A stretch of 32,847 nt of DNA, from positions 1 through 32,847 of the forward strand of contig CBFCYU010000002.1 in assembly GCA_965602415.1 (NCBI GenBank). Reading direction: 5' to 3'. A program made the translations under genes and the position numbers. Positions 11,835-32,154 of the stretch are shown piece by piece (position 1 is the stretch's first letter; each line of letters begins with the position of its first letter). This DNA is from an uncultured bacterium (GTDB lineage: Bacteria; Bipolaricaulota; Bipolaricaulia; UBA7950; UBA9294). Below the pieces are notes generated by a model. It did not search any database and was not told the origin of the DNA. It saw only the letters and a program-made list of their open reading frames with translations.

Positions 11835-11840
11835 TGAATC

Positions 11841-13054: not shown

Positions 13055-13136
13055 GCCTCAGTGCCTGGTATGGAATCGGAAGCGGACGTTGGTGAAGGGC
13101 AAAGGAACGCTGGGGGAACAAGTGCCTACTCAAGAC

Positions 13137-15385: not shown

Positions 15386-15644
15386 CCGGATGAGATGCAT
15401 TTCGCGGTGCGTCACGGTCCGTTCGCCCCGTTGAGATAACGTGCGGGTTGGAGATGGCTTTGGGCGAGATTCGGGTTTCTTCGTACACGCGTGATGACGA
15501 TGGTGCCGTGCCACTCCACAGCAGGTCGACACGAGATCTGCTGGCGTTCTCGCAGCGACTTCCGGGATCTACGGGGGCGGGGGGCACCCATTGTGCGCTC
15601 GTTTGGATGGGCGTTGTGGGCTCACTGCAGGCCGATGTCCGGGG

Positions 15645-15672
15645 TTGCGGAGCGCGCAAGTGACGATATAAT
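15645..15672 (+). promoter_or_regulatory. putative iclR promoter with consensus -10 TATAAT; predicts a leaderless mRNA
   Basis: TATAAT at 15667-15672 is exactly 7 nt from the A of ATG 15680, with no SD. A weak -35 TTGCGG at 15645-15650 gives a 16-nt spacer. Confidence 0.55.
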
Positions 15673-15679
15673 TGACACA

Positions 15680-16522: not shown

Positions 16523-16527
16523 ACACA

Positions 16528-17412: not shown

Positions 17413-17428
17413 AGACTGGAAGGTGATC

Positions 17429-19417: not shown

Positions 19418-19981
19418 CTATCGATCCACCAAGCTCGGTCCGCCAATGCCCCGCTTCACCCGCTTCGGAAACCCTTCCGTCTGAATGTCTCCGTAGTTGT
19501 GCCCGGCGTGAGCAGGATAGACACAGAACGAGATCAACGGCTCATCCCCCGTGTTGATCGAGCGGTGAGCCCAATCGGGGGGGGCGTAGATGAGGCGCCC
19601 CGCCTCCATTGGCTGTGCGTCCCATCGACCGTCGCACGTCTTCATGAGCATGAATCCCCTGCCACGCATGCATAGGTACGTCTCCGCGGTACCGGAGACG
19701 GTGTGGTAGTGGCCCTTGGTCATGAAGTACTCGTCTCCCACCTGCCCAGGTTCAAGCACGCTCATGCAGAAGAGGAGATGTCCCTTCTCCTCGGGGATCG
19801 CCTTCTCGTAGACGCGGTAGTGAACCGGATCGCACAGCGCGATCAACGCTTCAAGCGCTTCGGCATCGGCGTAGTACCCCCGCAGGTCGGAAGCACGGCG
19901 GATCACGATACGATCCGCGTCTTCCATCGTCCCGGTTGTGAAGTCGATCGCTACACCGAACGGAACATCGTACGGTTGCAT
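19418..19981 (-). CDS. cupin-type phosphoglucose isomerase (archaeal cPGI family)
   Basis: 187 aa. Colinear with my recollection of Pyrococcus cPGI: PFGVAIDFTTG, RRASDLRGYY, FMTKGHYH, YAPPDWAHRSINTGDEP, YPAHAGHNYG (His/Glu metal ligands of the cupin). Confidence 0.88.
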   Translation of the reverse strand: MQPYDVPFGVAIDFTTGTMEDADRIVIRRASDLRGYYADAEALEALIALCDPVHYRVYEKAIPEEKGHLLFCMSVLEPGQVGDEYFMTKGHYHTVSGTAETYLCMRGRGFMLMKTCDGRWDAQPMEAGRLIYAPPDWAHRSINTGDEPLISFCVYPAHAGHNYGDIQTEGFPKRVKRGIGGPSLVDR

Positions 19982-19984
19982 TCG

Positions 19985-20998
19985 CTATCCTCCTCCCGTC
20001 GGCACGGACCTCGCTCGTGCCGCTACGGCGGAGAGGTTGTCGAATTGCGGTCCGGACATCGGGATGTCGATCCCGAAAGAGGGCTTTGATTTACTCGATT
20101 TGCCTGACCCGAAAACCTTGCTGATCACCCGCGTCCAGCCGTGGATGAAGTACGTCCATCCGTCTTCGATCATCAGGCCTCCGGATTCCCGCTGTCGCCT
20201 TGCCTGCTCGAGGAAGTGGAGGTCTCCTCGGTAGTTGAAGTCCCACACGCGGCCACCTTGTGGGAACAAGGCGGCCTCCGTCAGCGGCGACCCGGGACGA
20301 TCCTTCCCCAACCCCGTGGCATTCGCGACGAGTGAACCGGGCGCCATGTCCGAACAGATGCGGTCATTCTCGGCGGAAGCTGGCGAGTGGACGTACTCGA
20401 CATCCACGCCGGCATCGAGCGCCCGGTGAACCTCGCGCATCTTGCTCAGTCGTCCCGGGCTGCGGTTTGTGATCACGATCCTTCGCGGATGCGGGCGCTC
20501 GGCCCCGGCCCGCTCCAGTAGATTGACCGACAGCGCAAGCGACGATCCCCCCGCTCCAAGGATGAGCACCGCGGCCCCCCCGGCCCAATGGGCCGCGGGG
20601 GCGGAGGGGTCCCGCGCCAATCCGCTAGAGATTGGATCCATAGCCGTGCCAATCAAATGCCCGTCCTGCTTCGAGATACAGCTGACCTCGCCGAGCCGCT
20701 CCGCGTACGGTCCGAGGACATCGAACAGGTCGCGGGCCGCTTCGAGCAGGTCTAACTTGTGCGTGGTCACGAGCGCCCCCATCGACAGCGGATCGGTCTT
20801 GATATGCTCAACAATCCGGCAGTACCGCTCCGGACTGTCGTGCAGGGCGAAATCGACCCCCACGATCTCCGCTTCGAGCCCGAGCACGTCGGCCCAGCGC
20901 GGGAACACGCGCATGATCGACGACTGGGTCGTCGTCACGCCGATGAAGTAGATCGTCGGCACTCGGCGCGGCCCGGAGATGGCGCTCATCCCGTCCAT
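19985..20998 (-). CDS. shikimate/quinate dehydrogenase-like NAD(P) oxidoreductase (AroE family, divergent)
   Basis: 337 aa. IGVTTTQSSIMRVFP, GALVTTHK (catalytic Lys position), GTAMDP (Asp position) and Rossmann motif VLILGAGGSSLA. Only 3 nt separate it from the downstream cPGI gene. True substrate unknown. Confidence 0.7.
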   Translation of the reverse strand: MDGMSAISGPRRVPTIYFIGVTTTQSSIMRVFPRWADVLGLEAEIVGVDFALHDSPERYCRIVEHIKTDPLSMGALVTTHKLDLLEAARDLFDVLGPYAERLGEVSCISKQDGHLIGTAMDPISSGLARDPSAPAAHWAGGAAVLILGAGGSSLALSVNLLERAGAERPHPRRIVITNRSPGRLSKMREVHRALDAGVDVEYVHSPASAENDRICSDMAPGSLVANATGLGKDRPGSPLTEAALFPQGGRVWDFNYRGDLHFLEQARRQRESGGLMIEDGWTYFIHGWTRVISKVFGSGKSSKSKPSFGIDIPMSGPQFDNLSAVAARARSVPTGGG

Positions 20999-21019
20999 CC
21001 TTCCGATCCCTTGGGCCGG

Positions 21020-21835
21020 CTATTCGTCCCACTCGGGGCCGAAATCCGGTTCGATCATCCGCTCGCCGTGGGCAAGCCCGTCGATCGCAGCCATATCCTC
21101 GGCAGCCAGCTCGAAATCGAAGATCTTGAAGTTCTCTTCGGCGTGCGCGTACCCTGACGACTTCGGAATGGCACCGACCAGCGGCTGCTGCATGAACCAA
21201 CGCAGCGTCACCTGAGCGGCGGTCTTACCGTACTTCGCACCGATTGCCGCCAGAGACTCGTCGGAGTGGCACTTGCCGATCCCAAGAGGCGCGTACGCCA
21301 TCACCAGAGCGTTATGCTTCCGCGCTGCTTCGATGACCTTCGCCTGCGAAAGGTACGGGTGGTACTCGACCTGGTTGCAGACGACCGGAGCGGCCTTGAC
21401 GGCCCGCTCGAACAGCACGACAGGGAAGTTGCTGACACCAATATGGCGCACCCTGCCTTGCTCCACTTCTTTCGTCATCGCCGCGAGGGTCTCTTCGACC
21501 TCGTACTTCGGATTCGGCCAATGGATCAGCCAGAGGTCGGCGTAGTCGATGCCGAGGTCCCTCAAGCTCTGATCGAGGCTCCGGCGAACCCCATCGGCGG
21601 ACATGTCATCCATCCATGCCTTCGTCGTGATGAACAGATCCTCTCGGCCGAGACCGGATGCCTTGATTCCCGCGCCGACGGCCTTCTCGTTCTCGTAGAT
21701 CTCTGCCGTATCCAGATGGCGATACCCGACCTTGAGGGCGTTCTCCACCGCCTGCGTGCACTCCTCGCCCTTCATCCGGAACGTGCCGAAACCAAGCGCA
21801 GGGATCCTCGCGCCACGAGCCTCTTCGTACTTCAT
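21020..21835 (-). CDS. aldo-keto reductase (2,5-diketo-D-gluconate reductase-like)
   Basis: Track ORF 21020..21874. Start set at ATG 21835 (MKYEEARGARIPALGFGTF) with GGGAAGGA upstream, one nt after the preceding stop (TGA-G-ATG). AKR tetrad context: HLDTAEIYENE, ITTK, LIHWP. Confidence 0.88.
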   Translation of the reverse strand: MKYEEARGARIPALGFGTFRMKGEECTQAVENALKVGYRHLDTAEIYENEKAVGAGIKASGLGREDLFITTKAWMDDMSADGVRRSLDQSLRDLGIDYADLWLIHWPNPKYEVEETLAAMTKEVEQGRVRHIGVSNFPVVLFERAVKAAPVVCNQVEYHPYLSQAKVIEAARKHNALVMAYAPLGIGKCHSDESLAAIGAKYGKTAAQVTLRWFMQQPLVGAIPKSSGYAHAEENFKIFDFELAAEDMAAIDGLAHGERMIEPDFGPEWDE

Positions 21836-21836
21836 C

Positions 21837-22514
21837 TCAACCATCCTTCCCTTGTGTGAGTTCGCTTGCGCCAAACGCGTGTACGTAGTCCTTGTGGAAT
21901 TTCAATGTGGCGGCCTCGACGGCGGGATTGGAGCAGATCTTCGAGACCACGTTCGATTGGATGGCCGCGTACCCGGCGCCCGCCTTCCACGCCAGCATCA
22001 GCTCCTCGGGGGTCCGGACGCTGGCCGCGATCACGTCGGCCTGAAGATCGTGCTGCTCCACGAGGTCGACGATGTCAGCGACGACCCGGCATCCGTCCCC
22101 GCCGACGTCGTAGATGCGCGCCATGTAGGGCGCGAGGAAGATTGCGCCGGCCCGCGCAGCGAGCAGTGCCTCATTGGCGGCGCAGATCACGGTCGCAGTG
22201 ATGCGGACCCCTTCCGAAGCCAGCGCATGGATCGCCTCGACTCCCGCGGCCGTAACGGGGATCTTGACAACGACCCGTTCCGGGTCGATCGCCGAAAGAC
22301 ACCGCCCTTCTTGGATCATCTCAGCGGCCGACAGCCCCGCGACCTGGATGAAGACCGGATCCGGCACGATATCGAGCACGCTTCGGACGAGTTTCTCCGA
22401 CGAAAGCCCCGCCTGTGCTACCAGACTCGGATTACTCGCCACACCGACGAACACCCCAAGCCGGTAGAGGTCCCTGACCTCGTCTGGTTCCGCGGATATC
22501 AGGATCAGTTTCAT
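21837..22514 (-). CDS. fructose-6-phosphate aldolase / type-3B transaldolase-like class I aldolase
   Basis: C-terminal 225 aa of track ORF 21837..22682, from ATG 22514 (MKLILISAEPDEV). Motifs: GVASNPS, VVVKIPVT (Schiff-base Lys), LAARAGAIFLAPYMARI. ATGA overlap with the upstream CMD gene. Confidence 0.85.
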   Translation of the reverse strand: MKLILISAEPDEVRDLYRLGVFVGVASNPSLVAQAGLSSEKLVRSVLDIVPDPVFIQVAGLSAAEMIQEGRCLSAIDPERVVVKIPVTAAGVEAIHALASEGVRITATVICAANEALLAARAGAIFLAPYMARIYDVGGDGCRVVADIVDLVEQHDLQADVIAASVRTPEELMLAWKAGAGYAAIQSNVVSKICSNPAVEAATLKFHKDYVHAFGASELTQGKDG

Positions 22515-22852
22515 GCCTCGCCCTCTCGATGCGCCTCGATCGCCGCCAGTACCGCTCCCATATGCGCCAGTGCGGGTCCGCCGTCCATGATGACGGCGAC
22601 GAAGGCCGCCTCCATGATCTCGTCCTCCACCGCGCCCGCTGCCACCGCGGAGCGAACATGATACGAGATGCATCGTTCGCATCCCTTGACGAGGGAGATC
22701 GCAATCGCAATGAGTTCTTTGTTTTTTCTCGAGACGGTTCCGTCAGCGTGGGCCGCAGCGGTGAACCGTCGCCACGCGGAAAGCGTCTTCCCGTGCGGTG
22801 TGGCTGACAACTGCTTCATCGTCTCCGCTAGTTCCTCGGTCATCCGCTGCAT
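22511..22852 (-). CDS. carboxymuconolactone decarboxylase (CMD)/AhpD-like family protein with CxxC
   Basis: C-terminal 113 aa of track ORF 22511..23155, from ATG 22852 (MQRMTEELAETMKQL). KELIAIAISLVKGCERCISYHV is the family helix carrying CxxC..H. The upstream part of the track ORF overlaps DeoC-like B in another frame. Confidence 0.75.
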   Translation of the reverse strand: MQRMTEELAETMKQLSATPHGKTLSAWRRFTAAAHADGTVSRKNKELIAIAISLVKGCERCISYHVRSAVAAGAVEDEIMEAAFVAVIMDGGPALAHMGAVLAAIEAHREGEA

Positions 22853-22866
22853 GCTCTCGGCGCGAC

Positions 22867-23601
22867 TCACGAGCCCGCCTCCTTCTCGGTTGCCATCCAC
22901 TCCATCGCGCGCAGCAGGCCGGCTCGGACCGGGATAGCGACACGATCGGCGCCAGCATCGAGGAGTTCGTTCACCGCCTGGATCGTCGTCACTCCTCCGG
23001 CCGCCTTCAATTTCAGGCCCTCCCCGACCAATCCGCGAAGCGACTCGAGGACGCCCACACTCGCGGATCCTTCGGCATCCGGATCGGTGGACACGATGCG
23101 GAACCCGACCGTATTCACCACGTACTCGAATCCCTGGTTCGCAGCGATGCTGCACGCCTCACGAATCCGGGACGAGCTGAGCAGCCCGGCTTCGAGGACA
23201 AGTTTCAATGTGATTTCGCCCGTCGCGCGGCGGATTTCGGCCAGTTCGTGGCCTACCACGTCCCAGCGCTCCGCCAGGATCGTGCCAAAATGCGGTACCA
23301 CATCGAGCTCGCGTGCCCCGTCTTCCACGGCCGCCTCGGCCTCTCGCGCCTTGACACTCGCCGACTGGCTGCCAAACGGATAGCTGATGACAGTCGCGAC
23401 CGAGGGACCACCCCGTCCCACACACACCGCGGCGCGACGAACGAGTGCGGAGGGGACAACCACCGTCCTGAAACCGCACACCGCCGCCTCGCAGCACATC
23501 GTCTCAAGATCACGATACGTGATGGTCTTGCGAAGGTCCGTGTATTCGATCGAGTCCGCGACCCGGGGAAGCGCAGCCCTGATCTTCTCGTGTCCGCTCA
23601 T
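22867..23601 (-). CDS. DeoC/LacD-family class I aldolase-like protein, paralog B (no Lys at the canonical Schiff-base position)
   Basis: 244 aa, DERA-like throughout: IEYTDL, VATVISYPFG, GARELDVV, ITLKLVLEAG, LKLKAAGGV, GADRV. Where DERA has F[IV]KTSTG, it reads EYVVNTVGF. Confidence 0.8.
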   Translation of the reverse strand: MSGHEKIRAALPRVADSIEYTDLRKTITYRDLETMCCEAAVCGFRTVVVPSALVRRAAVCVGRGGPSVATVISYPFGSQSASVKAREAEAAVEDGARELDVVPHFGTILAERWDVVGHELAEIRRATGEITLKLVLEAGLLSSSRIREACSIAANQGFEYVVNTVGFRIVSTDPDAEGSASVGVLESLRGLVGEGLKLKAAGGVTTIQAVNELLDAGADRVAIPVRAGLLRAMEWMATEKEAGS

Positions 23602-24302
23602 CCGAGGGCCTCCTTCGCTTCATCGAGGACCCGGAAGATCGGGCTGGCATGGATGTTGTCGGTGCCCGCCTTGAAGTACGCGAGCGCATGTTCGAGCGAG
23701 CGCACTCCTCCGGAGACATCGATCTGGAACGTCTCTCCGAACGTTCGGCAGATGAACGCGACGTCCTCGATGCACGTGTTCCAGCCGTAACCCGAAGAGG
23801 TCTTGATCCCTCCGACACCCCCTTCGGCGTACGCTTCCAGGGTCCGAGCCAGCGCATCACGCGTCAGGATTGCGGTCTCCGGAATGACCATCACCCAGAT
23901 CTCGCCGGCCGCCGCGTCGATCATCGCCTTGGCGTCTTCGCGAACGGCATCGAAGTCGCCCGACATGATCGCGCTGAAGTTCCCGCCGATGTCGATCTCC
24001 TCCGCTCCAAGTCGCACGCCCTCCCGGATCGCGGCCACCTTGGCCTCGATCGACCAGTTGCCGACCGGATACGCCGCCTCGACACCGATTCGGATGCCGA
24101 GCGGTGAGAGGATCTCCCGTGCCAGATCGACCCACGGTTGATCGACGAAGATCGCATCAATCGGCGGGTAGTCGGCGAAGCGACGAAGAAACGCCCGGGC
24201 CTCCTCCTCGGTGGCCGCGGGAGAGAACGTCGCCGTCATCATCCGGTTGGCAAACGCCTCCGCTGTTGTCGGAGCGCCGCGCGGTTTGCGATTTCCTTCC
24301 AT
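23598..24302 (-). CDS. DeoC/LacD-family class I aldolase-like protein, paralog A (Schiff-base Lys motif present)
   Basis: C-terminal 234 aa of track ORF 23598..24596, from ATG 24302 behind GGGAGAGGAG. Motifs: GAEEIDIG, IWVMVIPET, GGIKTSSGYG, FQIDVSGGV. Its stop overlaps the paralog B start (ATGA, 23598-23601). Confidence 0.78.
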   Translation of the reverse strand: MEGNRKPRGAPTTAEAFANRMMTATFSPAATEEEARAFLRRFADYPPIDAIFVDQPWVDLAREILSPLGIRIGVEAAYPVGNWSIEAKVAAIREGVRLGAEEIDIGGNFSAIMSGDFDAVREDAKAMIDAAAGEIWVMVIPETAILTRDALARTLEAYAEGGVGGIKTSSGYGWNTCIEDVAFICRTFGETFQIDVSGGVRSLEHALAYFKAGTDNIHASPIFRVLDEAKEALG

Positions 24303-24324
24303 GATCTCCTCTCCCGATTCGCCG

Positions 24325-25854
24325 CTAGTCGGCCATCTCCCGCTGCATCGCCACGAGCTCCCCGAACAACGGCTCCAGTGCGCCATACGCCTGATTGAAG
24401 AGCGTGAATGCCCGGTCGTACGCCGATTTCCGCTCCGCGATCGGGTGATCCGTCCCGGCGATCGGCGACAGCGTCGCGGCGACGCTGAAGTCATCGAACA
24501 CGCCGACGCCCACGCCGGCACACACCGCGGCACCGAGAGAGGTCGCGAACTCACCGCTCTCGAGCCGCTCGATCGGAATCCCCAGCATGTCTGCAAGCGC
24601 TTGGCAGAGCACCGGGTTCCGGATTCCCCCGCCGATCATCCGCAGAGAGTCCAGCTGCCCGCCTTGTTCGGTCAGCGCCTCGAAGATGATACGCAAGTTG
24701 AACCCTACTCCCTCGAGGACGGCACGCACGAGGTCTCCTGCTCCGTGGCTGCGCGCAAGGCCGACAAACGCGCCACGCGCATCCTCATTCCAGTGTGGAC
24801 TCCGCTCGCCGATCAGGTACGGAAGGAACAACAAGCCATGCGCGCAGGCGGGCGACGACGATGCCCACCGGTTGAGGAACGCGTACCCCTCGTCCGTCGT
24901 CTTTCCCAGCTCCTCGGGGAAGAAGACCTCTCGGATCCAATCGTACGAGCCGCCGGCGCTCTGCATCGTGCCGACAGGCATGTAGAGGTTCGGCTCGAGG
25001 TGACAGAGGTTGAACGTTCGCATCCCCGGATCGAACACCGGTTCACTCGTCGCAATCGCGATCCAAGACGAGGATCCGAGGTAGTTGTACCCTTCATTGG
25101 CGCGGATCACACCCGCGCCAACTGTAGCGCAGGCCCCGTCCCCTCCGCCGAGGACGACGGGAACGCCTTCGATATCCACTCCGTCCGCCACCTTCACCGG
25201 TCCGATCACGGTTGACGATGGCAACGCCTCGGGAAAGAGTCGTCCGGGAATCCCGCCGGCCGAGAGGAGATCATCGCTCCATGCCTTGGTGGAAAGGTCG
25301 AAGGCGTTGGTCGCTGAGGCGTCCGAGTAGTCGGTGGCGAACCGGCCGGTCAGACGCGCGACGATGTAGTCCTTCGATTGCAGCACGAACCGCGTCTTCG
25401 CGTAGATCTCGGGCTCGTTGTCCCGAATCCACATGATCTTCTCGAGTGTGTAGTTGGGGTTGGGTCGCGTGCCGGTGATGCGGTAGATCTCCTCCGGCGT
25501 CATCGACCGCAGCAGCGAGGCCACTTGGTCGCTCGATCGCGTGTCCGCCCAGATGATCGCACGCCGCAGGGCCCTTCCCGATTCATCGACCGGGACGCAA
25601 CCCATCATGTGCCCGCTGAAGCTCATCGCGGCAATCGACGACTTGGTGATCCCCGCCTGTTCCATCACCGCAGCGGATGCCCGGCAGACGGCGAGCCACC
25701 AGGCGTCGGGATCCTGTTCGACCCACCCCGGGCGGTCGTAGTACGTCGGGTAGGTTTCCAGAGCGCTGGCGACCAGGGTGCCGTTTTCGTCGAACAACGT
25801 CGCCTTGTTCCCGGTGGTCCCAAGATCGTGTGCGAGCAGGTACGCGCTTGCCAT
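24325..25854 (-). CDS. FGGY-family carbohydrate kinase (xylulokinase-like), copy 2
   Basis: 509 aa. LLAHDLGTTGNKATLF, GWVEQDPDAWW, VVLGGGDGACATVGAG, RMIGGGIRN. Clear paralog of the 9413..10981 kinase. Confidence 0.9.
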   Translation of the reverse strand: MASAYLLAHDLGTTGNKATLFDENGTLVASALETYPTYYDRPGWVEQDPDAWWLAVCRASAAVMEQAGITKSSIAAMSFSGHMMGCVPVDESGRALRRAIIWADTRSSDQVASLLRSMTPEEIYRITGTRPNPNYTLEKIMWIRDNEPEIYAKTRFVLQSKDYIVARLTGRFATDYSDASATNAFDLSTKAWSDDLLSAGGIPGRLFPEALPSSTVIGPVKVADGVDIEGVPVVLGGGDGACATVGAGVIRANEGYNYLGSSSWIAIATSEPVFDPGMRTFNLCHLEPNLYMPVGTMQSAGGSYDWIREVFFPEELGKTTDEGYAFLNRWASSSPACAHGLLFLPYLIGERSPHWNEDARGAFVGLARSHGAGDLVRAVLEGVGFNLRIIFEALTEQGGQLDSLRMIGGGIRNPVLCQALADMLGIPIERLESGEFATSLGAAVCAGVGVGVFDDFSVAATLSPIAGTDHPIAERKSAYDRAFTLFNQAYGALEPLFGELVAMQREMAD

Positions 25855-25870
25855 GTCCCCCCCTCGAAGC

Positions 25871-26908
25871 TCAGGCCGTCAGGTCGATCGTCACCTTGAT
25901 CCCGTCCTGCGACGAGACCGTGTCGAACCCTTCCTGGAACGCATCGAGTCCCGGAATCACGTGCGTGACGTAGTCCGACAGATCGATCTCTCCCGAGTCG
26001 ACCAACCCGACCACCTCGTCGTGCACCGCCGCCTCGTCCTCGAACGTCGGCCACTGCACGAACTGAATCGCCCAATTGTACGGCGCTTCCTCCCAATCGA
26101 TCTGCGCACTCGTTTCGGCCGCGATCCCGTAGATGCCGACCTTCCCGTTGAACTTCACGATCTTCAGGCTATCGGTCATCAGGCGGTTGATCCCCACCGC
26201 ATCGATGACGAAGTCGAACCCGTCGGGCTCGATCCCCTTGGCCTTCGCGAGAAGATCCTCGGCGGTCGGATCGATTACGACGTCCGCGCCCAGCTTCGCC
26301 GCTCGTCCGCGACGATCGGCGTTCGGTTCACTCACGACAATCGGTCCGGCGCCCTTCAGCTTAGCGAAGCGGACCATCGACAGACCGACCGGTCCAGCGC
26401 CGTGGATCAACACGGAGGCTCCCGAATCCACGCCGAATCGCTGCAACCCTGAGAGGACCTCCTTCAGCGTGATCAGCATGACGGCCTGATGCGGGTCAAG
26501 GTGCGCCGGCACGACCTGCTGCGCGAGGTAAATATCGTAGTAGTCTTCCCTACCGTCAGTCTTCATCGCCGCGATGTCCCCGACGACGCCATACTCCGCG
26601 AAGCTTCCCCAGCCCGAGGCGTACTTCTCATCCTCGACCTTCTCCAGGATCGAGCGGAGCACAAGATCCCCCGGCTTGAAGGAAGTGACCTTCGCGCCGA
26701 CCTCGACGACACGACCGACGCTCTCGTGGCCGAGGACCGCCGGATACGTGTCAAACCCCTTGAAGCTGGCGTGGATCAGCTTGAAGTCGGTCCCGTTGCA
26801 GATGCCGCAACTGAGGTTCTGCACCAGTGCACCGTAGTCCCCGATCACTGGCTTCGGGAGCTGCTCGACCTTCATTGTTCCATCCTGGTAGACGACAAGA
26901 CCCTTCAT
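25871..26908 (-). CDS. zinc-dependent medium-chain dehydrogenase (polyol/sugar alcohol dehydrogenase-like)
   Basis: Track ORF 25871..26950. ATG 26908 behind AAGGAGGGA. Motifs: CGICNGTD, LGHESVGRVVEVG, Rossmann VLIHGAGPVG. I see no structural-zinc Cys-rich loop. Confidence 0.85.
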   Translation of the reverse strand: MKGLVVYQDGTMKVEQLPKPVIGDYGALVQNLSCGICNGTDFKLIHASFKGFDTYPAVLGHESVGRVVEVGAKVTSFKPGDLVLRSILEKVEDEKYASGWGSFAEYGVVGDIAAMKTDGREDYYDIYLAQQVVPAHLDPHQAVMLITLKEVLSGLQRFGVDSGASVLIHGAGPVGLSMVRFAKLKGAGPIVVSEPNADRRGRAAKLGADVVIDPTAEDLLAKAKGIEPDGFDFVIDAVGINRLMTDSLKIVKFNGKVGIYGIAAETSAQIDWEEAPYNWAIQFVQWPTFEDEAAVHDEVVGLVDSGEIDLSDYVTHVIPGLDAFQEGFDTVSSQDGIKVTIDLTA

Positions 26909-26963
26909 CGCGTTCCCTCCTTGTTGGTGCACACTCCTATGATCGGGCACGTCTTCGGGCGAC

Positions 26964-28397
26964 TTACCACGCCCGACGCTGAAGATAATTCCGGTACGGG
27001 ACCCGCTCCAGCGGCTTGATATCCATCCAGGCGGCGAATTCCAGCACCGCCTCGCTCAAGTCTCCCATCGCCAGAGGGAAGTGGTGCTCGAATCCATTGA
27101 CCACAACCGTGTTGGTGAAGTCGAGCGCAGAGACTGGCTCTTCCCCGCGCATCTTGAACTTGCCGACCCAGCCCCGGGTGCCCCGCGGGCTCGGCTTCGT
27201 GTCCCCGACCGTTTCGCCGGTCGCAAGCAGCAGTCGATTGCCCCCGTCGGTCAGGCGCATCAGGGTAAACGGCGTCTGTTTCAGCACCATGTCGAACGCC
27301 GCCGGCGCTGGACCGACCTGCCCGTCGTCACCCGCAGCCTCGATGATCGAATGGCGGCACTGAATGCAGTTCTCCGTCCAGCATGGGTGTCCGACGCCGC
27401 AATGCCAGAGCAGGATCGTGTCGTCCTCTGGATCGAGCGCAGACAGGTCCATCAGCACCGGCCGATCTCCGCCCATCGCCTTGAGGATCGCCATTGAGAC
27501 GGCGCTCGGCACGTCACCCTCGCACGCCGCAACGTATCCCTTCTGATTGAGTCGGCCGAGCGTGGTGCACGCCGTCAAGCCGTACAGCGCCTGGAAGTGC
27601 GGCCAGCATGCAATGCCCACCCCCGTGTAGTCGTTCTCCTCGATCAGGCGCTCGAACACCCTATAGACCCGCGCGAGCTTCATGAACTCGGCGGCCGACA
27701 CACCCTCGGCGGGAACCTCCGCCTGAATCTCTTCGGAAACCTTCGCAACCTCCGCTTCCGGCAGTGCGTCCGCCTGCGCGAGAAGCTCAGTCAGCTCGTG
27801 CCTGTCGACGGTGATGTCGAACTTCGATCGCAGCCGCCCGTCGTTCCAGTAGACGTCGTAGTACCCCTCCGGCGTTCCGCCAACGTTGGCGAACTTCGCT
27901 CCGTCGAGCGTCTTGATCGCCTTGAGCGCTCGGATCGTCGGATCGAATCGCTTGAGGAAGATGTCACTGTCCGGCAATCCGAAGTACCACTTGTACCTGA
28001 CGTTTCGCTCAGCGAGGTACGTGCCGAGAATGCCAGCGTAGAGATTCACCCCGCACAGCGAATTCAACCGCAGCGAGCCACCGGTGGTCTCCGGCTCAGG
28101 CATCGCCCACAGACCGAGCGGAACCCCAAGATCGGCGAACGCAGCGACGATCTCTCCACCGGCGAACGAGCAAGACTGAAGCAACATCATGTCGACGTCG
28201 GCCGTCCGCAGTTCGTCGCGAAACGCCGTACAGACATCGACGTTGTTCGTCGCAGCGGGCGCTGCGATCAGCTCGAAGCCCCATTCCTGCCCCAGTTTCC
28301 CGAGCGTATCGACCGCGCCGCGGTACAGCTCTTGCGAGAGCGCCTCGTCGAAGCAGTCATACCAGACGCCGGCGATTCCGATCTTCAGTTTGGACAC
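26964..28397 (-). CDS. L-fucose/L-arabinose isomerase-family sugar isomerase (unknown specificity)
   Basis: 477 aa, GTG start behind GAAGGAGG. N-terminal flavodoxin-like swivel region (KIGIAGVWYDCFDE), central ACEGDVPSAVSMAILKAM and C-terminal NGFEHHFPLAMGD. These resemble the FucI/AraA catalytic-domain metal-binding regions. Confidence 0.7.
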   Translation of the reverse strand: MSKLKIGIAGVWYDCFDEALSQELYRGAVDTLGKLGQEWGFELIAAPAATNNVDVCTAFRDELRTADVDMMLLQSCSFAGGEIVAAFADLGVPLGLWAMPEPETTGGSLRLNSLCGVNLYAGILGTYLAERNVRYKWYFGLPDSDIFLKRFDPTIRALKAIKTLDGAKFANVGGTPEGYYDVYWNDGRLRSKFDITVDRHELTELLAQADALPEAEVAKVSEEIQAEVPAEGVSAAEFMKLARVYRVFERLIEENDYTGVGIACWPHFQALYGLTACTTLGRLNQKGYVAACEGDVPSAVSMAILKAMGGDRPVLMDLSALDPEDDTILLWHCGVGHPCWTENCIQCRHSIIEAAGDDGQVGPAPAAFDMVLKQTPFTLMRLTDGGNRLLLATGETVGDTKPSPRGTRGWVGKFKMRGEEPVSALDFTNTVVVNGFEHHFPLAMGDLSEAVLEFAAWMDIKPLERVPYRNYLQRRAW

Positions 28398-28435
28398 GGT
28401 GCCTCCTTCGGCAATCCCTCGGTATCGCGAATCAC

Positions 28436-29425
28436 CTACGCAGTCTTCCTCTGTCTCACGCGGTCAATAACGACAGCGGCCACGACGAGCGTACCAATGA
28501 GGATCTGTTGGTAGAACGGCGACACGCCGACCAGATTGGCTCCGTTGCGGAGCACCCCGAGGAACAGCGCGCCGATGAGCGTCCCGACCATGCCCCCGCG
28601 GCCGCCGAAGAAACTCGTCCCTCCGATAACGACCGCCGAGATGACGTCCAACTCCCAGCCGGTCGCCGCCGCCGGCCAGGCTGAACGAGTGCGCGAAGCG
28701 AGGATGATCCCGGCGAAGCCGGCCAGCGTGCTACACAAGATGAAATTGGTGATCCGGTATCGATCGACCTTGATCCCGGACAGTCGCGCCGCCTCTTGAT
28801 TGCCTCCGATGGCGTAGACTGCCCGTCCGTAGGGGGTTCTCGTCAGCACCAGATACCCGATCACCATGAACACCGCGAAGACGATGACGGGAGCGGGAAT
28901 CGGCCCCACCATCCCCCCGCCTAGAGCACCGAACGACTTCGGCAGGTTCCCGATCGAGAGTCCTCTGGTATAGACGAGTGCCATGCCTCGCGCGATGGAC
29001 ATCATACCGAGGGAGACGACAAAAGAATGGACCTTCGACTTGGTGATGATGATCCCCATCACCCATCCCATCAGCGCAGCGACAGGGATCGGAACGAGAA
29101 TCGCCATGAGCGGAGACAAGCCCTGTCGAGCCATCAGGCCGGCGGTCAGCGCACCGCAGAACCCGGCGATGGATCCGACGGAGAGGTCGATATCCGCAGA
29201 GAGTATCACGAACGTCATTCCCACCGACATGATGCCGATCATCGAGACCTGGCGGATCACGTTGAAGATGTTGTTCACACTGAGGAAGACAGGTCGTATG
29301 CTCGCGATGACAACGCACACCAGAAGGAAGACGAAGAAGATGCTGTATTCCCTGAAGATGCGCTGGGCCGAATGCTTGGCGAAGCTTCCGATTCGTCGAG
29401 TCAGCGTCTCGCGCGTCTGTTCCAT
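28436..29425 (-). CDS. CUT2 ABC transporter permease (single membrane subunit of the second transporter)
   Basis: Track ORF 28436..29467. ATG 29425 (MEQTRETLTRRIG) behind GAGGA. Motifs: VSMIGIMSVGMTFVILSADIDLSVGSI, AIGGNQEAARLSGI. Confidence 0.88.
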   Translation of the reverse strand: MEQTRETLTRRIGSFAKHSAQRIFREYSIFFVFLLVCVVIASIRPVFLSVNNIFNVIRQVSMIGIMSVGMTFVILSADIDLSVGSIAGFCGALTAGLMARQGLSPLMAILVPIPVAALMGWVMGIIITKSKVHSFVVSLGMMSIARGMALVYTRGLSIGNLPKSFGALGGGMVGPIPAPVIVFAVFMVIGYLVLTRTPYGRAVYAIGGNQEAARLSGIKVDRYRITNFILCSTLAGFAGIILASRTRSAWPAAATGWELDVISAVVIGGTSFFGGRGGMVGTLIGALFLGVLRNGANLVGVSPFYQQILIGTLVVAAVVIDRVRQRKTA

Positions 29426-29496
29426 CCTGATGTCCTCTTGTCTCCGGTTGTTGAGCCCCAGTGGCACCCTGGCTTCTCCCTACACAGCGGTTGGAC

Positions 29497-29531
29497 GCGG
29501 GCGGGGGAACGTCAGACGCTCCCCCGCCCGC
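29497..29531 (-). terminator. intercistronic GC-rich stem-loop directly after the second binding-protein gene
   Basis: Perfect 12-bp stem, GCGGGCGGGGGA (29497-29508) with TCCCCCGCCCGC (29520-29531), and an 11-nt loop. It begins 11 nt after the SBP stop (29543), within a 117-nt gap before the permease start. No U-tract follows. Confidence 0.65.
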
Positions 29532-29542
29532 TTGGTTGTGGC

Positions 29543-30487
29543 CTAGAGATCGTAGTTCATCTCCGCCTCGGTCTCGTAGTTCGAGAGCACCAGCATCCAA
29601 GGGTTGATGTCGTAGTCGAGCACCTCCGGCAGCGTGCCGTTGATCACGTACAACGCCAGCTGCTCCATGGCGAGCCGCGCCATTTCGACCGGATACTGAA
29701 TGGTAGCATCCAATTCTCCGGCGATGAGCGCGTTCAGTCCGCCCGGAACGCCGTCGTACCCGACGACAATGACGTCATCGAAGTCGATGCCGGCATCGAT
29801 CATCGCCTGGATCGCTCCGAGTGCCGAATCGTCGTTCGCGCAGATGACTGCGTCGAAATCCCCGCCCGTCGAGGTGATCGCGTCTTCCATCACGCGAAGC
29901 CCCTCGTCCGGCGAGAACCGCCCGCTCTGCTCGTAGACGATTTCCAGTCCTGGATAGTGGACCAGCTGCGCCTTGATACCCAGCTCACGGTTGATCGCCG
30001 GCGACGAACCGAGTTCGCCGAGGATGTGAACGATCTTGCCGACGCCGTCCAGCTTGGAGGCAACGTACTCGAGCGCAAGTCGCCCGCCGAAGATGTCATC
30101 CGCTCCGACATGGAAAATGGTAGAATCCTGGTTGAAGGCCCGGCGGTCGAATGTGGCGACGGGGATCCCCGCAGCCGCAGCCGCTTCGATAACCGGCACA
30201 AGGACGTCGACGTTCAATGGGTTGACCAGAATTGCGTCAAACCCTTGGGCGATGAAGTTCTCCATGATTTCGACTTGCCGGGCCGCATCTCCTTGAGCGT
30301 TCTCAACAACCAGCTCGATCTCGTCATACTTGGCCGCCTCATCGATAACCGCCTGGTAGGCGTAGGTCATCCATGTGTAGGCGAGCGTCATGCAGGCGAA
30401 TCCTACCCGGTAGGTCGCCGCAGCTACATTGACCACGGGCACCGCGATCAAGCCGACAACGAGCAGCACTAGCAACGCACGTTTCAT
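29543..30487 (-). CDS. CUT2 sugar ABC transporter substrate-binding protein, second system
   Basis: Track ORF 29543..30517. ATG 30487 (MKRALLVLLVVGLIAVPVV...) behind AAGGAGGAAA. Type I PBP body (FDAILVNP, GIPVATFDR, VVGYDG). Signal-like N-terminus without a lipobox. Confidence 0.85.
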   Translation of the reverse strand: MKRALLVLLVVGLIAVPVVNVAAATYRVGFACMTLAYTWMTYAYQAVIDEAAKYDEIELVVENAQGDAARQVEIMENFIAQGFDAILVNPLNVDVLVPVIEAAAAAGIPVATFDRRAFNQDSTIFHVGADDIFGGRLALEYVASKLDGVGKIVHILGELGSSPAINRELGIKAQLVHYPGLEIVYEQSGRFSPDEGLRVMEDAITSTGGDFDAVICANDDSALGAIQAMIDAGIDFDDVIVVGYDGVPGGLNALIAGELDATIQYPVEMARLAMEQLALYVINGTLPEVLDYDINPWMLVLSNYETEAEMNYDL

Positions 30488-30522
30488 TAGCTTTCCTCCT
30501 TGTTGCTTAACAGTCACAAGCT

Positions 30523-32154
30523 CTACCTCTCGGTCCGTTGACGGTCACCATTCCCGCCTGCGGTCCCGGTCAGGGCCGATGCGAGGATGGCCTCCTTGGA
30601 GATGTCATCGCGAAGGAGTTCATCGACGATGCGCCCCTGCCGTAGAACGTAGACGCGGTCACACACGTCAACCAGCTCTTCGACCTCGGAAGAAATGATG
30701 AGAACACCAGCGCCTTCCTCGGCGAGCACTCTCACCAGACCGTAGATCTCCGATTTCGCACCCACATCGATTCCCCGTGTCGGTTCGTCAAACAGGAAGA
30801 TCCTCGCGCTTGAGCACAACCAACGAGCAACGACAACCTTCTGCTGATTCCCTCCACTCAGGGCCTCAACGAGTTGCTGAATCCTCGTAGCCTTGATGTC
30901 CAACGACTTGACTCGTTCCATCACCTCCTTCCGTATCCGTTTGTAGTCAAGGACAAGTCCCTTCCCACGAAAACGGAAACGGCAAAATCTAGATAGAGAG
31001 GCTAGAATGATGTTGTCGCGCACACTGGAACAGAGGACCAGCCCCAACCCCTTCCGATCCTCCGGGAGGTAGCAAATTCCCTGCCGGACAGCGTGCGTCG
31101 GGGACTTGATCCGGACTGGCTTACCCGAGACATAGATCTGACCGCTATTCGATCGATCCGCACCGAAGATGGCTCGTGCCACCTCCGTTCGTCCCGATCC
31201 CATGACGCCTGCAAGCCCCACGATCTCACCGCTGCACACGCGCAGGCTCACATCCTCGAACACGCCGTTGCGGGTCAGGTTCTCGACGCGGAGACGCTCT
31301 GCGCCCGCCTCACATGCCGGGCGCGGATTGCCGCGGGCAGCCACAGCTCGACCGACCATCAGCTGGACAAGATGCTCCATGGACGCGTCCTCAACGCGCA
31401 GGGTTTCTTCTCGCCGGCCGTCCCGCATCACCGTGACCCGATCGGCGATTTCGCCGACTTCTTCGAGGCGATGAGAGATGTAGATGATGGCGCAGCCGCG
31501 CTCCTTCATTTGATGAACCACCCGGAACAGCTCCTCGATCTCTCTGGAGCTCAGCGCGGCCGTCGGCTCGTCCATGATGTAGATCTCGGATTCCAGCGAG
31601 AGGGCCTTCGCAATCTCCACCATCTGCTGTTTCGCGACGCCGAGGCGCCGAACCGGAATCGTCGGCGGGATGTTAACCTGCAGATCTCCGAGGATTCGTT
31701 CCGTGGTTCGATTCATCGCCTTTCGATTGATGAGTCCCCGCGTCAGAAATCGCTTGCCTCGCGGCAGGTGTCCCAAAGAGACGTTCTCGGCCACCGACAG
31801 ATCCGGAACGAGGTTGTACTCCTGATAGATGGTAGCGATGCCGAGACGCTGAGCATCGCGCGGCGAACCGATCTCGACCGGCTCGCCACGAAGGCGAATG
31901 TCGCCCTCATCCTTGCGGTATACGCCGGAGAGAATCTTGATCAGCGTCGACTTGCCCGCCCCGTTGGCTCCGAGAAGCGCATGGACCTCGCCCGGGCGGA
32001 CGTCGAAGTCGACATGATCGACCGCCAGCACGCCGGGGAACTGCTTCAGGATCCCCTTCATCTGCACGAGATGCCCGTTGGACTGCGCCGGGACCGAAGG
32101 GCCGCTCGATGCGGTTCTCACGCCGGACTCCTTACCTCTACGTTCGCTGTCCAT
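30523..32154 (-). CDS. CUT2 sugar ABC transporter ATP-binding protein (fused double ATPase), second system
   Basis: 543 aa. Walker A GANGAGKSTL, signatures LGVAKQ and LSGGNQQKV, Walker B IYIMDEPT and IFLFDEPT. ATG lies 3 nt after the upstream UTRA gene stop. Confidence 0.9.
   Translation of the reverse strand: MDSERRGKESGVRTASSGPSVPAQSNGHLVQMKGILKQFPGVLAVDHVDFDVRPGEVHALLGANGAGKSTLIKILSGVYRKDEGDIRLRGEPVEIGSPRDAQRLGIATIYQEYNLVPDLSVAENVSLGHLPRGKRFLTRGLINRKAMNRTTERILGDLQVNIPPTIPVRRLGVAKQQMVEIAKALSLESEIYIMDEPTAALSSREIEELFRVVHQMKERGCAIIYISHRLEEVGEIADRVTVMRDGRREETLRVEDASMEHLVQLMVGRAVAARGNPRPACEAGAERLRVENLTRNGVFEDVSLRVCSGEIVGLAGVMGSGRTEVARAIFGADRSNSGQIYVSGKPVRIKSPTHAVRQGICYLPEDRKGLGLVLCSSVRDNIILASLSRFCRFRFRGKGLVLDYKRIRKEVMERVKSLDIKATRIQQLVEALSGGNQQKVVVARWLCSSARIFLFDEPTRGIDVGAKSEIYGLVRVLAEEGAGVLIISSEVEELVDVCDRVYVLRQGRIVDELLRDDISKEAILASALTGTAGGNGDRQRTER

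Follow-up and report, generated by a model that had tools for sequence, protein, structure and literature searches.

The described systems that come closest to the gene cluster considered here each resemble one part of it. The deo system couples a PfkB-type sugar kinase (DeoK) to deoxyribose-phosphate aldolase (DERA; DeoC), along with nucleoside phosphorylase and phosphopentomutase. The L-fucose, L-arabinose, and L-rhamnose pathways employ an isomerase of the AraA/FucI fold, then an FGGY kinase and a C–C cleaving step, with a class II (metal) aldolase or an epimerase. In GatY/GatZ and KbaY/KbaZ, which are class II metal aldolases, a catalytic subunit is accompanied by a non-catalytic paralogous subunit. 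The isomerase SftI of the sulfo-TAL pathway (SftI, SftT, and SftR/SftD) works with the transaldolase-type SftT (PMC7491151). In fructose-6-phosphate aldolase (FSA), Asp6 forms a hydrogen bond with the 3-OH group of the nucleophile and is positioned by Thr26; the enzyme becomes DERA-like in its non-polar D6X and D6X/T26X variants, which take ethanal, propanal, or acetone as the nucleophile, and every one of them has completely lost the cleavage of fructose 6-phosphate (F6P) (Junker et al. 2018, PMC6099348). Here we describe a cluster of 13 genes at positions 19418-32154 on the minus strand of a 32,847-nucleotide stretch of DNA (hereafter the window; G+C ~62%; contig CBFCYU010000002.1) from an uncultured bacterium of the Bipolaricaulota. 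Judged from the sequence, it is a conserved catabolic cluster organized like an operon, with an unusual set of enzymes. Homologues of the window proteins bear names from Candidatus Bipolaricaulota metagenome-assembled genomes.

Pfam and NCBIfam scans of the interval confirmed all the families named by the original prediction, at their coordinates and all on the minus strand (Table 1): an ABC ATPase, a substrate-binding protein (SBP), a permease, an AraA/FucI-like isomerase, a zinc-dependent alcohol dehydrogenase (Zn-ADH), an FGGY kinase, two DeoC-like proteins (DeoC-A and DeoC-B), a CMD/AhpD protein with a CxxC motif (CMD), an FSA-like protein, an aldo-keto reductase (AKR), a shikimate-dehydrogenase-like (AroE-like) protein, and a cupin phosphoglucose isomerase (cPGI). 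With the starts chosen by Shine-Dalgarno support, the gaps from the ABC ATPase to cPGI are, in gene order, 35, 117, 38, 55, 16, 22, -4, -4, -4, 1, 21, and 3 nt, in keeping with the predicted range of -4 to 117 nt, and all the junction strings quoted in the prediction are present. Direct reading of the sequence shows ATGA stop/start overlaps at 23598-23601 and 22511-22514, TGAGATG (21833-21839) at the junction of the AKR and FSA-like genes, and a 3-nt gap (CGA, 19982-19984) between the AroE-like and cPGI genes; a third 4-nt overlap (GTGA, 22867-22870) is formed provided that the CMD gene starts at GTG, which has a strong Shine-Dalgarno sequence. Ribosome-binding sites of the AGGAGG type are found at most operon starts, no terminator-like or promoter-like site was found on the minus strand within the interval, and an Rfam scan of the window gave zero matches. 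The GC-rich DNA produced over-long open reading frames (ORFs) in the mechanical list (22511-23155, 23598-24596, and 21837-22682, all on the minus strand), and several operon ORFs in that list reach far upstream of the Shine-Dalgarno-supported starts.

To examine conservation of the cluster, orthologous loci (numbered with the prefix L) were obtained by a protein search with the isomerase, retrieval of the genomic contexts of the matches, and a BLAST comparison of every retrieved locus with the proteins of the window. The full order, consisting of a GntR regulator, the 13 genes as listed above, and a convergent GntR regulator, was found in L001, L009-L012, L017, L023, and L024, the protein identities of the window genes to these loci being 48-92%. 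Partial versions occur in nine more contigs, and overall the order is kept in at least 10 diverged Bipolaricaulota contigs; the genome-neighborhood comparison that the original prediction had proposed as a check thus brought out a recurrent gene order, and none of the clusters proved, within the databases and literature searched, to be already assigned to a characterized pathway. As had also been predicted, the gene set is unmatched by known operons, in that no characterized pathway corresponding to it was found in the NCBIfam equivalogs, the PDB, or the literature searched, the search not being exhaustive. Among all 13 proteins, the sole NCBIfam equivalog match above the cut-off is a misleading DERA call for DeoC-B, and neither DeoC-A nor the AroE-like protein has a Pfam match. 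The identity of the ABC ATPase across the orthologous loci is 74-83%. As a control, none of 65 loci with ordinary DERA genes contained the other genes of the cluster, except for weak ABC-ATPase matches and one weak DHDPS match. The short gaps, the stop/start overlaps, the lack of terminator-like sites on the coding strand, and the conserved order together lend indirect support to a single transcription unit.

The variation among the orthologous loci separates an invariant core (the transporter, the ADH, the FGGY kinase, DeoC-A/B, and CMD) from add-on modules, namely the isomerase, the FSA-like protein with the AKR, and the AroE-like protein with cPGI. In L025, the order is the same with the isomerase missing, and in L002/L003 the cluster stops after CMD and is followed by transposase genes, with no FSA-like, AKR, AroE-like, or cPGI gene in the remaining locus. 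A more distant locus (L004), whose isomerase is 42% identical, consists of GntR, ABC ATPase, SBP, permease, isomerase, ADH, and FGGY kinase genes, with a single canonical DERA gene directly after the kinase. Given that L025 does without the isomerase and L002/L003 without the tail, the 13 genes form modules rather than one obligatory linear pathway, and the route envisaged originally needs revising in this respect.

The prediction had counted 14 genes within the interval; there are 13, and the fourteenth is a GntR/UTRA regulator that lies outside it, with its stop at 32158. This regulator is probably the first gene of the unit. Its stop codon is located 3 nt before the ABC ATPase start (TGAGGCATG), and in L001, L002, and L004 a complete GntR+UTRA gene overlaps the ATPase start with its end. 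The second GntR regulator, on the plus strand, is convergent with the end of the operon, its stop being 10 nt apart from that of cPGI, and a convergent GntR gene occupies the same place in L001, L009, L011, L012, L017, and L023.

Both DeoC-like proteins are DERA-derived, with complementary losses of the DERA lysines. In the numbering of the E. coli DeoC sequence, the motifs of which match the canonical alignment columns, DeoC-A keeps Asp102 and the Schiff-base Lys167 (in IKTSSGYGW), and has Met for Lys137 and Asp for Lys201; these residues are invariant in the A family. DeoC-B keeps Asp102, Lys137, and Lys201, and has Val/Asn at the Schiff-base position 167 (VVNTVGF), which holds across the B family, directly followed by a conserved 9-residue insertion (FRIVSTDPDAEG). 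With the DERA model TIGR00126 (cut-off, 117.3), DeoC-A scores 114.1 and DeoC-B 124.9, the latter exceeding the cut-off despite the missing Schiff-base lysine; DERA structures match DeoC-A at up to 98 bits. The original prediction of three class I Schiff-base aldolase-fold genes is therefore borne out for the fold and fails for the Schiff base of DeoC-B, and its view of the two DeoC-likes as ordinary aldolases does not survive their complementary lysine losses. Since DeoC-B exceeds the curated cut-off, automatic pipelines will name it an aldolase. Members of the DeoC-A family are named "deoxyribose-phosphate aldolase" in JGI records, though lacking Lys137 and Lys201.

The DeoC-A family is small and almost confined to the Bipolaricaulota. 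That of DeoC-B is tiny: among 1.8 billion, only 7 representative clusters match it at E<1e-30. With an identity of 48-69%, against 70-92% for its neighbors, DeoC-B is less conserved than any other gene of the operon, which is consistent with a non-catalytic or modified role. Every A-type gene has an adjacent partner that encodes a B-type protein or a canonical DERA. The adjacency of DeoC-A and DeoC-B in every locus and their ATGA overlap suggest a heteromer, in which DeoC-A would be the probable catalytic subunit and DeoC-B its non-Schiff-base partner. In L014 (389-13018 of a 95-kb contig), four adjacent DeoC-like pairs are found, each with an A-type member and a B-type or canonical DERA partner; one A-type member has Cys, not Lys, at the Schiff-base position. 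Between these pairs lie a creatininase-family gene, a PfkB kinase gene, and a gene of the I6/A26 FSA type described below, and CMD and the aldehyde ferredoxin oxidoreductase (AFOR) group are located close by. Long DERA-like matches were also surveyed for A-B fusion proteins (Rosetta-stone test), but the 468-480-residue proteins that emerged consist of a degenerate N-terminal half and a canonical DERA, and were rejected. The arrangement recalls GatY/GatZ and KbaY/KbaZ in that DeoC-A and DeoC-B are adjacent paralogous barrels, one of which lacks a key catalytic residue; it differs from them in that both proteins are of class I and DERA-derived, that each has lost different lysines, and that the pairing is deduced from the genes.

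The FSA-like protein departs from its family in the nucleophile-recognizing residues. It scores 186.8 with the FSA/TalC model TIGR00875 (cut-off, 245.95), and alignments to transaldolase structures and E. coli FSA show that Lys85, Gln59, Tyr131, and Asn28 are kept, as in the FSA type and not the E/F of transaldolase. Asp6, Thr7, and Thr26 are replaced by Ile, Ser, and Ala, respectively, and this combination, including I6/A26, is invariant in 15 of 15 orthologs (52-81% identical). The same positions are non-polar in the engineered E. coli FSA variants D6X and D6X/T26X (PMC6099348), in which Lys85, Asn28, and the catalytic Tyr are likewise kept; the engineered library is without Ile at position 6, and the operon protein represents a natural, conserved subfamily known from sequence. 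In the light of these variants, the natural I6/A26 protein is predicted not to be an F6P aldolase and to use a nucleophilic carbon without a hydroxyl group. The making or cleaving of F6P by this protein is accordingly unlikely, and its predicted chemistry would be that of DERA. Of the link to F6P and glucose 6-phosphate (G6P) that had been drawn through the FSA-like protein and cPGI, the former half is thus made unlikely by the D6I/T26A replacements, and the latter remains plausible from the homology of cPGI to phosphoglucose isomerases. The CMD gene overlaps both of its neighbors (GTGA and ATGA) and is thereby coupled to them in translation. No ortholog cluster lacks it, not even the shortened L002/L003, and in L014 it stands beside a cyclase-VOC-LarA-AFOR group.

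The isomerase has no PDB sequence match at E<0.01, but its AlphaFold2 model (pLDDT 93.7) was matched by Foldseek to the AraA structures of E. coli, Geobacillus, and Thermotoga (TM, 0.76-0.80), then to FucI and D-arabinose isomerase, with only 14-18% identity to AraA and FucI; the AraA_central score of 26.7 compares with a Pfam cut-off of 24. It scores 23.9 bits with the L-arabinose isomerase equivalog AraA (NF002795; cut-off, 622), and its best NCBIfam match is SftI (NF048012), full-length at 169.8 bits vs a cut-off of 700. Thus, on the basis of the model, it is assigned the three-domain fold of L-arabinose/L-fucose isomerases, as a small clade of its own that is optional in the cluster. In an alignment of 32 homologues, Glu293, Asp295, Asp317, Asp322, His332, His438, and His439 are invariant; the Mn-binding and catalytic Glu/Asp/His set of the fold may be among these residues. 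Invariant in the same 32 homologues, down to 29% identity, are also Cys264, Cys277, Cys292, and Cys333. We know of no such set of conserved cysteines in AraA or FucI, and these four residues may form a metal or redox site. The isomerase search returned a tight Bipolaricaulota clade of 65-84% identity and the one 42% relative, followed by proteins of 25-40% identity in the Chloroflexota and others, and a scan with a narrow alignment of the isomerase located the clade in only 6 of ~185,000 species-representative genomes, all Bipolaricaulota-like. One 65%-identical isomerase (P0025, from L002/L003) bears in UniRef the name of an archaeon, "Candidatus Methanosuratincola", on a contig with the bacterial-type cluster; a binning error or a transfer event is the likely reason for this attribution. 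More distant homologues (32-35%) were rejected as a guide to the operon, since their context (thiolase-like, DUF35, and Dak1/Dak2 genes) is different and uninformative. In L006 (6626-11446) and L007 (5372-11440), distant isomerase homologues occur with thiolase-like, DUF35/OB_ChsH2_C, and Dak1/Dak2 genes beside GH127 and GH51 arabinofuranosidases, and similar proteins carry Chloroflexota names; this set may represent a separate, undescribed ketose-cleavage route yielding dihydroxyacetone.

The Zn-ADH, a core member, is classified by its sequence as a zinc-dependent medium-chain dehydrogenase of the polyol/threonine-dehydrogenase type. Its best NCBIfam matches, IolM (122 bits) and Tdh (110 bits), are both far below the cut-offs; the motifs CGICNGTD and GHESVG were read by eye as providing the catalytic-zinc ligands (Cys and His/Glu), and no Cys cluster of the structural-zinc kind was seen by eye in its sequence. 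The FGGY kinase, also of the core, is xylulokinase-like by its scores: 374.5 with XylB TIGR01312, narrowly under the cut-off of 380.25, and 260 bits with the E. coli XylB structure (2itm), as compared with 273 vs 912 for the enterobacterial XylB model, 262 for FGGY-type gluconokinase, and 180 vs 528 for LsrK. The nearest named families of the SBP are the galactofuranose-binding YtfQ (156 bits) and RbsB (127 bits), each score being below its cut-off; its best PDB relatives are 4yo7, 2ioy, 4rs3, and 2vk2, with polyol- and inositol-binding structures among the nearest. As the SBP, kinase, and dehydrogenase each fall between characterized families, the name of the substrate is not derivable from similarity. 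The 117-nt gap between the SBP and permease genes folds at -52.1 kcal/mol (z = -2.4) and contains a hairpin directly after the SBP stop codon (Table 1). Strong hairpins of differing sequence are found in the same gap of L001 (8864-8966), L002 (8876-8969), and L004 (3645-3721), and it is the structure rather than the sequence that is conserved. The hairpin is probably an mRNA stabilizer or a partial attenuator raising the expression of the SBP relative to that of the downstream genes.

At the other end of the operon, the AKR matches DkgB at 250 bits (cut-off, 327) and contains the motifs LDTAEIY, TTKAW, and IHWP, read by eye as the Asp/Tyr/Lys/His tetrad; this DkgB-like enzyme probably reduces an aldehyde or dicarbonyl compound. 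The AroE-like protein has no Pfam match even at E<=5 and no NCBIfam equivalog, its scores with AroE models being at most 37 bits (best model cut-off, 221), without membership of AroE, YdiB, or quinate dehydrogenase. Its AlphaFold2 model (pLDDT 84) was matched by Foldseek to shikimate and quinate dehydrogenases and to 5-ketofructose reductase (TM, 0.75-0.79, target-normalized). In our own comparison, in which the alignment covers the Asp region only, the protein has VTTHK and AMD where AroE has NVT.P.K with the catalytic Lys and NTD with the catalytic Asp. The model thus points to an oxidoreductase of the shikimate-dehydrogenase fold, belonging to a widespread family of its own and not AroE itself. 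More than 7,900 homologues are found at 55-60% identity across phyla, and the annotated records examined call the family "shikimate dehydrogenase". The cPGI matches the phosphoglucose isomerases of T. litoralis (181 bits) and P. furiosus (174 bits), with about half of the aligned residues identical by eye and the motifs TKGHYH, AE.Y, PP.WAHR, and YPA.AGH.YG conserved. It is thus a close relative of characterized archaeal phosphoglucose isomerases, which makes a link to a hexose 6-phosphate pool plausible.

The AroE-like and cPGI genes also occur together outside the Bipolaricaulota. The AroE-like gene is fixed beside cPGI and a PGDH-like gene in sugar/polyol clusters of at least six phyla, and the three genes adjoin in Microbacterium, Paracoccus, Sinorhizobium, Rhizobium, Marinovum, Lichenicola, Hydrogenedentes, and Spirochaetota; the cPGI of the window is 61-68% identical to the copy beside the AroE-like gene in Hydrogenedentes and Spirochaetota. 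This cross-phylum module is usually completed by a regulator (RpiR or DeoR) and a hydrolase of the MBL or PTE fold. Its variable neighbors include FGGY kinases, CUT2 transporters, and dehydrogenases of the SDR, Zn, or glycerol type; an AKR or an aldolase (Eda-like or DeoC-like) is found in some cases, and in S. meliloti and Microbacterium, a DeoC-like gene is paired with an FGGY kinase gene. The front-end enzymes of the module are 24-35% identical to those of the window, vs 50-59% for the AroE-like protein and 35-68% for cPGI, and this difference marks the latter two as a conserved back end and a separable module. No paper assigning a function to it was found in the literature searched. The PGDH-like protein encoded near the operon (17396-18406) is 33-42% identical to the products of the 2-Hacid_dh genes beside AroE-like and cPGI in L097-L105, its gene adjoins the operon in those Bipolaricaulota loci for which the retrieved flank extends far enough, and it is likely the counterpart of the 2-hydroxyacid dehydrogenase of the module in other phyla. 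The window shares with the module the FGGY kinase, the CUT2 ABC transporter, polyol-type dehydrogenases, and the nearby PGDH-like gene, but it is without the MBL/PTE-fold hydrolase and the RpiR/DeoR regulator; conversely, the module is without the isomerase, the A/B pair, CMD, and the I6/A26 FSA.

The reading that we favor, with a confidence that falls somewhat short of even, is a modular operon with DERA-type cleavage in which the nucleophile is not hydroxylated, and hence an undescribed route. The CUT2 ABC importer would bring in a furanose- or polyol-like solute, which the ADH, or the isomerase when an aldose is supplied, would convert to a phosphorylatable carbonyl sugar, the aldose entering at the same ketose. 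The XylB-like FGGY kinase would then phosphorylate a terminal hydroxyl group, and a DeoC-A/B complex would perform the retro-aldol cleavage, with A giving the Schiff-base lysine and B acting as a partner without a Schiff base; the FSA-like enzyme would cleave in the same manner, with or instead of DeoC-A/B. As all three barrels are of the type for non-hydroxylated nucleophiles, or have been converted to it, the cleaved intermediate should be the phosphate of a 2-deoxy-aldose or a 3-deoxy-ketose, with a CH2 group next to the carbonyl. Cleavage would give a triose or tetrose phosphate together with acetaldehyde (or acetone/hydroxyacetone), the reactive carbonyl product being reduced by the AKR or ADH, or oxidized by the neighboring AFOR, and the AroE-like protein and cPGI would most plausibly deliver hexose 6-phosphate. 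The heteromer, the order of the steps, the deoxy nature of the intermediate, and the identity of the products are all what we infer. The general order agrees with the originally predicted sequence of uptake, isomerization and/or polyol oxidation, phosphorylation, and class-I-type cleavage, which fits the conserved core. A bolder version, which we regard as possible though doubtful, holds that DeoC-A/B is a new DERA-derived heteromer with the catalytic lysines divided between paralogous subunits, that it acts with the CxxC AhpD-like protein and a natural "DERA-like" FSA (D6I/T26A) in the cleavage step of a so far undescribed anaerobic route of degradation of a deoxy-type sugar or polyol, and that AroE-like/cPGI is the signature of a second uncharacterized pathway, widespread in several phyla, rhizobia included.

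Under the favored reading of DERA-type cleavage, the most likely class of substrate would be a 2-deoxyribose-like or ribose-like pentose or pentitol. A 2-deoxyribose-like compound is the leading guess in view of the canonical DERA gene directly after the kinase in L004 and of the canonical DERAs that accompany a PfkB kinase in L014, and the proximity of the SBP to furanose- and ribose-binding proteins was counted in the same direction; deoxyribose or ribose specifically is given a low probability. These features also constitute the likeness to the deo system: a barrel of the DERA family comes after a sugar kinase, the SBP is ribose/furanose-like, aldehyde-handling enzymes are nearby, and the DERA-bearing arrangements of L004 and L014 resemble it further. 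The differences are that the kinase is of the FGGY (XylB-like) family and not PfkB, that DERA is replaced by the A/B pair with split lysines, and that the operon is without nucleoside phosphorylase or phosphopentomutase, whereas deo operons have no counterpart of its isomerase, polyol dehydrogenase, AhpD-like, FSA-like, AKR, AroE-like, and cPGI genes. With the L-fucose, L-arabinose, and L-rhamnose pathways, the operon shares the isomerase fold (TM, ~0.8), followed by an FGGY kinase and a C–C cleaving step. It differs from them by having neither a class II (metal) aldolase nor an epimerase, the absence of the former from every scanned ORF of the window being as predicted, and by an isomerase that is only 14-18% identical to AraA and FucI and dispensable in one ortholog cluster.

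Several points weigh against DERA-type cleavage as formulated here. A 2-deoxy-aldose is no substrate for an aldose-ketose isomerase, so that a single simple 2-deoxy sugar could not serve both the isomerase and a DERA-type step. This would require parallel routes of entry or a further, unassigned step of the pathway that forms the CH2 group, and no dehydratase is present. Lys201, which DeoC-A has lost, is regarded as essential in E. coli DERA, and DeoC-A may catalyze something other than aldol cleavage. DeoC-B may likewise have its own chemistry, given its conserved inserted loop. The Zn-ADH is of the polyol/threonine type and not a typical acetaldehyde reductase, the cPGI/AroE-like tail is not accounted for by a pentose or deoxypentose substrate, and three nominally DERA-like enzymes in one operon amount to an unexplained redundancy.

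Other explanations were weighed against this evidence. The scheme of the original prediction, in which a hexose or hexitol is converted to a ketohexose phosphate and cleaved by ordinary class I aldolases to trioses, with the FSA-like protein and cPGI tied to F6P/G6P and the AKR and AroE-like protein reducing an aldehyde, would account for the close homology of cPGI to proven phosphoglucose isomerases, the polyol type of the Zn-ADH, and the company that the AroE-like and cPGI genes keep with polyol dehydrogenases and FGGY kinases in many phyla, among them rhizobial records annotated as D-threitol dehydrogenase and galactitol-1-phosphate dehydrogenase; moreover, SftI, the nearest named relative of the isomerase, also interconverts F6P and G6P (PMC7491151). 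We nevertheless consider it unlikely, because the FSA-like protein is without Asp6 and Thr26, and every engineered variant of this kind loses F6P cleavage (PMC6099348), because DeoC-B is without the Schiff-base lysine and DeoC-A without Lys137 and Lys201, both being of the DERA family and not LacD/FbaB-type ketose-bisphosphate aldolases, and because in L002/L003 the cluster ends after CMD, without any of the FSA-like, AKR, AroE-like, and cPGI genes in the remaining locus. A multi-substrate mosaic, for which we see a comparably low probability, would have the isomerase, ADH, and kinase convert one or more pentoses and pentitols to a pentulose 5-phosphate for the pentose-phosphate pathway, the DeoC pair and FSA-like protein serve a separate deoxy-sugar, and the AroE-like protein and cPGI constitute an independent back end on a shared promoter. 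The losses of the isomerase in L025 and of the tail in L002/L003 agree with such an arrangement, as do the association of AroE-like and cPGI elsewhere with quite different front ends (24-32% identical), the A/B pairs of L014, which go with a PfkB and not an FGGY kinase and are without isomerase or ADH, and the score of the kinase just under the XylB cut-off. It is opposed by the same gene order over at least 10 diverged contigs, by the stop/start overlaps through the DeoC-A/DeoC-B/CMD/FSA block, by the presence of a single transporter only, and by the ADH-FGGY-DeoC arrangement kept even in the distant L004, as would be expected if the kinase and the DERA-type step were functionally linked.

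Degradation of sulfoquinovose or another 6-substituted glucose, as in the sulfo-EMP and sulfo-TAL pathways, was also considered, SftI being the best named family of the isomerase. The sulfo-EMP pathway was included in this comparison by its composition of enzyme families. Families of sulfoglycolysis are mirrored in the operon by the Tal/FSA fold, the DeoC/LacD superfamily, the kinase, and the reductases, and with sulfo-TAL in particular it shares an isomerase, a Tal/FSA-fold enzyme, an aldehyde reductase, and, as predicted for cPGI, phosphoglucose isomerase activity (PMC7491151). Yet the isomerase reaches only 170 of the 700 bits required for SftI; SftT is of the transaldolase type (PMC7491151), whereas the FSA-like protein has Gln59/Tyr131 with the D6I/T26A replacements, and transfer of a dihydroxyacetone moiety needs recognition of the 3-OH; the operon has a kinase and DERA-likes, the latter not of the YihT/LacD type; and no sulfoquinovosidase or other glycoside hydrolase and no exporter-type membrane protein were found among the 13 genes or the other scanned ORFs of the window. 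Hence this pathway is very improbable, and the original denial of any relation to sulfoquinovose needs amending only in respect of the isomerase, whose best named relative is SftI, the rest of the pathway being absent. It is equally hard to believe that the genes form no functional unit at all, being independently regulated, with DeoC-B and the FSA-like protein as decaying paralogues. The low conservation of DeoC-B (48-69%) and its missing catalytic lysine would suit such decay, but the ORFs are intact in all orthologs, the B-specific insertion is conserved, I6/A26 is invariant with the other catalytic residues all kept, the operon contains three 4-nt stop/start overlaps and no internal terminator-like sites, and the gene order is kept among sequences as low as 48% identical. 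An autoinducer-2 (lsr) system was rejected, as the kinase scores 180 vs 528 with LsrK, no LsrG-type match is present among the 13 genes, the DeoC-likes match DERA and not the LacD type, and LsrF is missing.

The remaining parts of the window contain three further groups of genes (Table 1). The region at 11964-18406 on the plus strand encodes a cyclase (PF04199), a VOC/glyoxalase-like protein, AFOR, an IclR regulator, a DHDPS/NanA-like aldolase, and the PGDH-like dehydrogenase, and a small ferredoxin-like protein is encoded in another frame within ~12,880-13,500. Wherever the retrieved flank of an ortholog locus extends far enough, this ferredoxin and AFOR (AFOR-DHDPS-2HADH) group adjoins the operon, and the two are probably parts of one metabolic guild; in L014, the AFOR group occurs with a LarA homologue. 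A second sugar-uptake/kinase cluster (4660-11861, minus strand) is lsr-like in composition, with no LsrF or LsrG among the scanned ORFs. A 459-residue ORF (4244-5623, minus strand) was examined as a second isomerase and rejected, as it has no similarity, no family match, and a junk-like composition, and overlaps a permease gene; it is probably spurious. Unrelated housekeeping genes occupy the left end of the window (469-4517).

Table 1. Coordinates of the operon, its regulators, and other features of the window.
Feature	Position	Strand	Assignment and scores
GntR/HutC-type regulator	32158-32847	-	UTRA domain 97.6 bits; 5' end cut by window end
ABC ATPase	30523-32154	-	CUT2-type, two ABC domains; PF00005 twice, 178 bits; alternative start 32061
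SBP	29543-30487	-	Peripla_BP_4/CUT2 family; PF13407 182 bits
Hairpin	29497-29531	-	Perfect 16-bp, GC-rich, without U-tract, directly after SBP stop codon
ABC permease	28436-29425	-	BPD_transp_2, PF02653 155 bits
AraA/FucI-like isomerase	26964-28397	-	AraA_central 26.7 bits, Fucose_iso_C 24.3 bits (Pfam)
Zn-ADH	25871-26908	-	ADH_N and ADH_zinc_N matches
FGGY kinase	24325-25854	-	FGGY_N and FGGY_C matches
DeoC-like A	23598-24302	-	DERA family, TIGR00126 114.1 bits
DeoC-like B	22867-23601	-	DERA family, TIGR00126 124.9 bits
CMD/AhpD protein, CxxC motif (CERC)	22511-22870	-	PF02627 71 bits; TIGR00778 AhpD core 54 bits
TAL_FSA (FSA-like) protein	21837-22514	-	PF00923 109 bits
AKR	21020-21835	-	PF00248 206 bits
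Shikimate-dehydrogenase-like (AroE-like) protein	19985-20998	-	Foldseek on AlphaFold2 model; Pfam silent
Cupin PGI (cPGI)	19418-19981	-	PF06560 97.6 bits vs cut-off 20.7
Second GntR/HutC-type regulator	18544-19407	+	GntR and UTRA domains
PGDH-like D-2-hydroxyacid dehydrogenase	17396-18406	+	2-Hacid_dh_C 196 bits; PGDH model 281 bits
GntR/UTRA regulator, second cluster	10974-11861	-	
Second XylB-like FGGY kinase	9413-11113	-	XylB 342 bits, LsrK 208 bits
Peripla_BP_4 binding protein, second cluster	8321-9328	-	
ABC ATPase, second cluster	6708-8357	-	
Two permeases, second cluster	5648-6703 and 4660-5661	-	
C_GCAxxG_C_C redox protein	within ORF 3159-4517	+	
FeoB	1939-3882	+	
Fur	1499-1936	+	
HhH-GPD base-excision repair protein	469-1215	-	

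Sugar/polyol operons that combine an ABC transporter with an isomerase, a dehydrogenase, a kinase, and an aldolase are of a familiar kind, but the set of enzyme variants in the present one is conserved and so far undescribed, and it is attached to a widespread uncharacterized module. The textbook aldolase is replaced by three class I barrels that depart from their families in a consistent direction: the FSA-like protein would be the natural equivalent of the engineered FSA D6X/T26X variants, and the DeoC pair is possibly a DERA with divided functions. Either might find use as an aldolase for non-hydroxylated nucleophiles. The operon also sets a trap for annotation, in that DeoC-B is read as DERA, the FSA-like protein as an F6P aldolase or transaldolase in Bipolaricaulota reconstructions, and the AroE-like protein as shikimate dehydrogenase. 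The AroE-like/cPGI/PGDH-like module is shared by cultured and genetically tractable bacteria such as Sinorhizobium meliloti, Rhizobium leguminosarum, Paracoccus, and Microbacterium, in which the role of the tail could be worked out, and this would aid identification of the substrate of the Bipolaricaulota operon.

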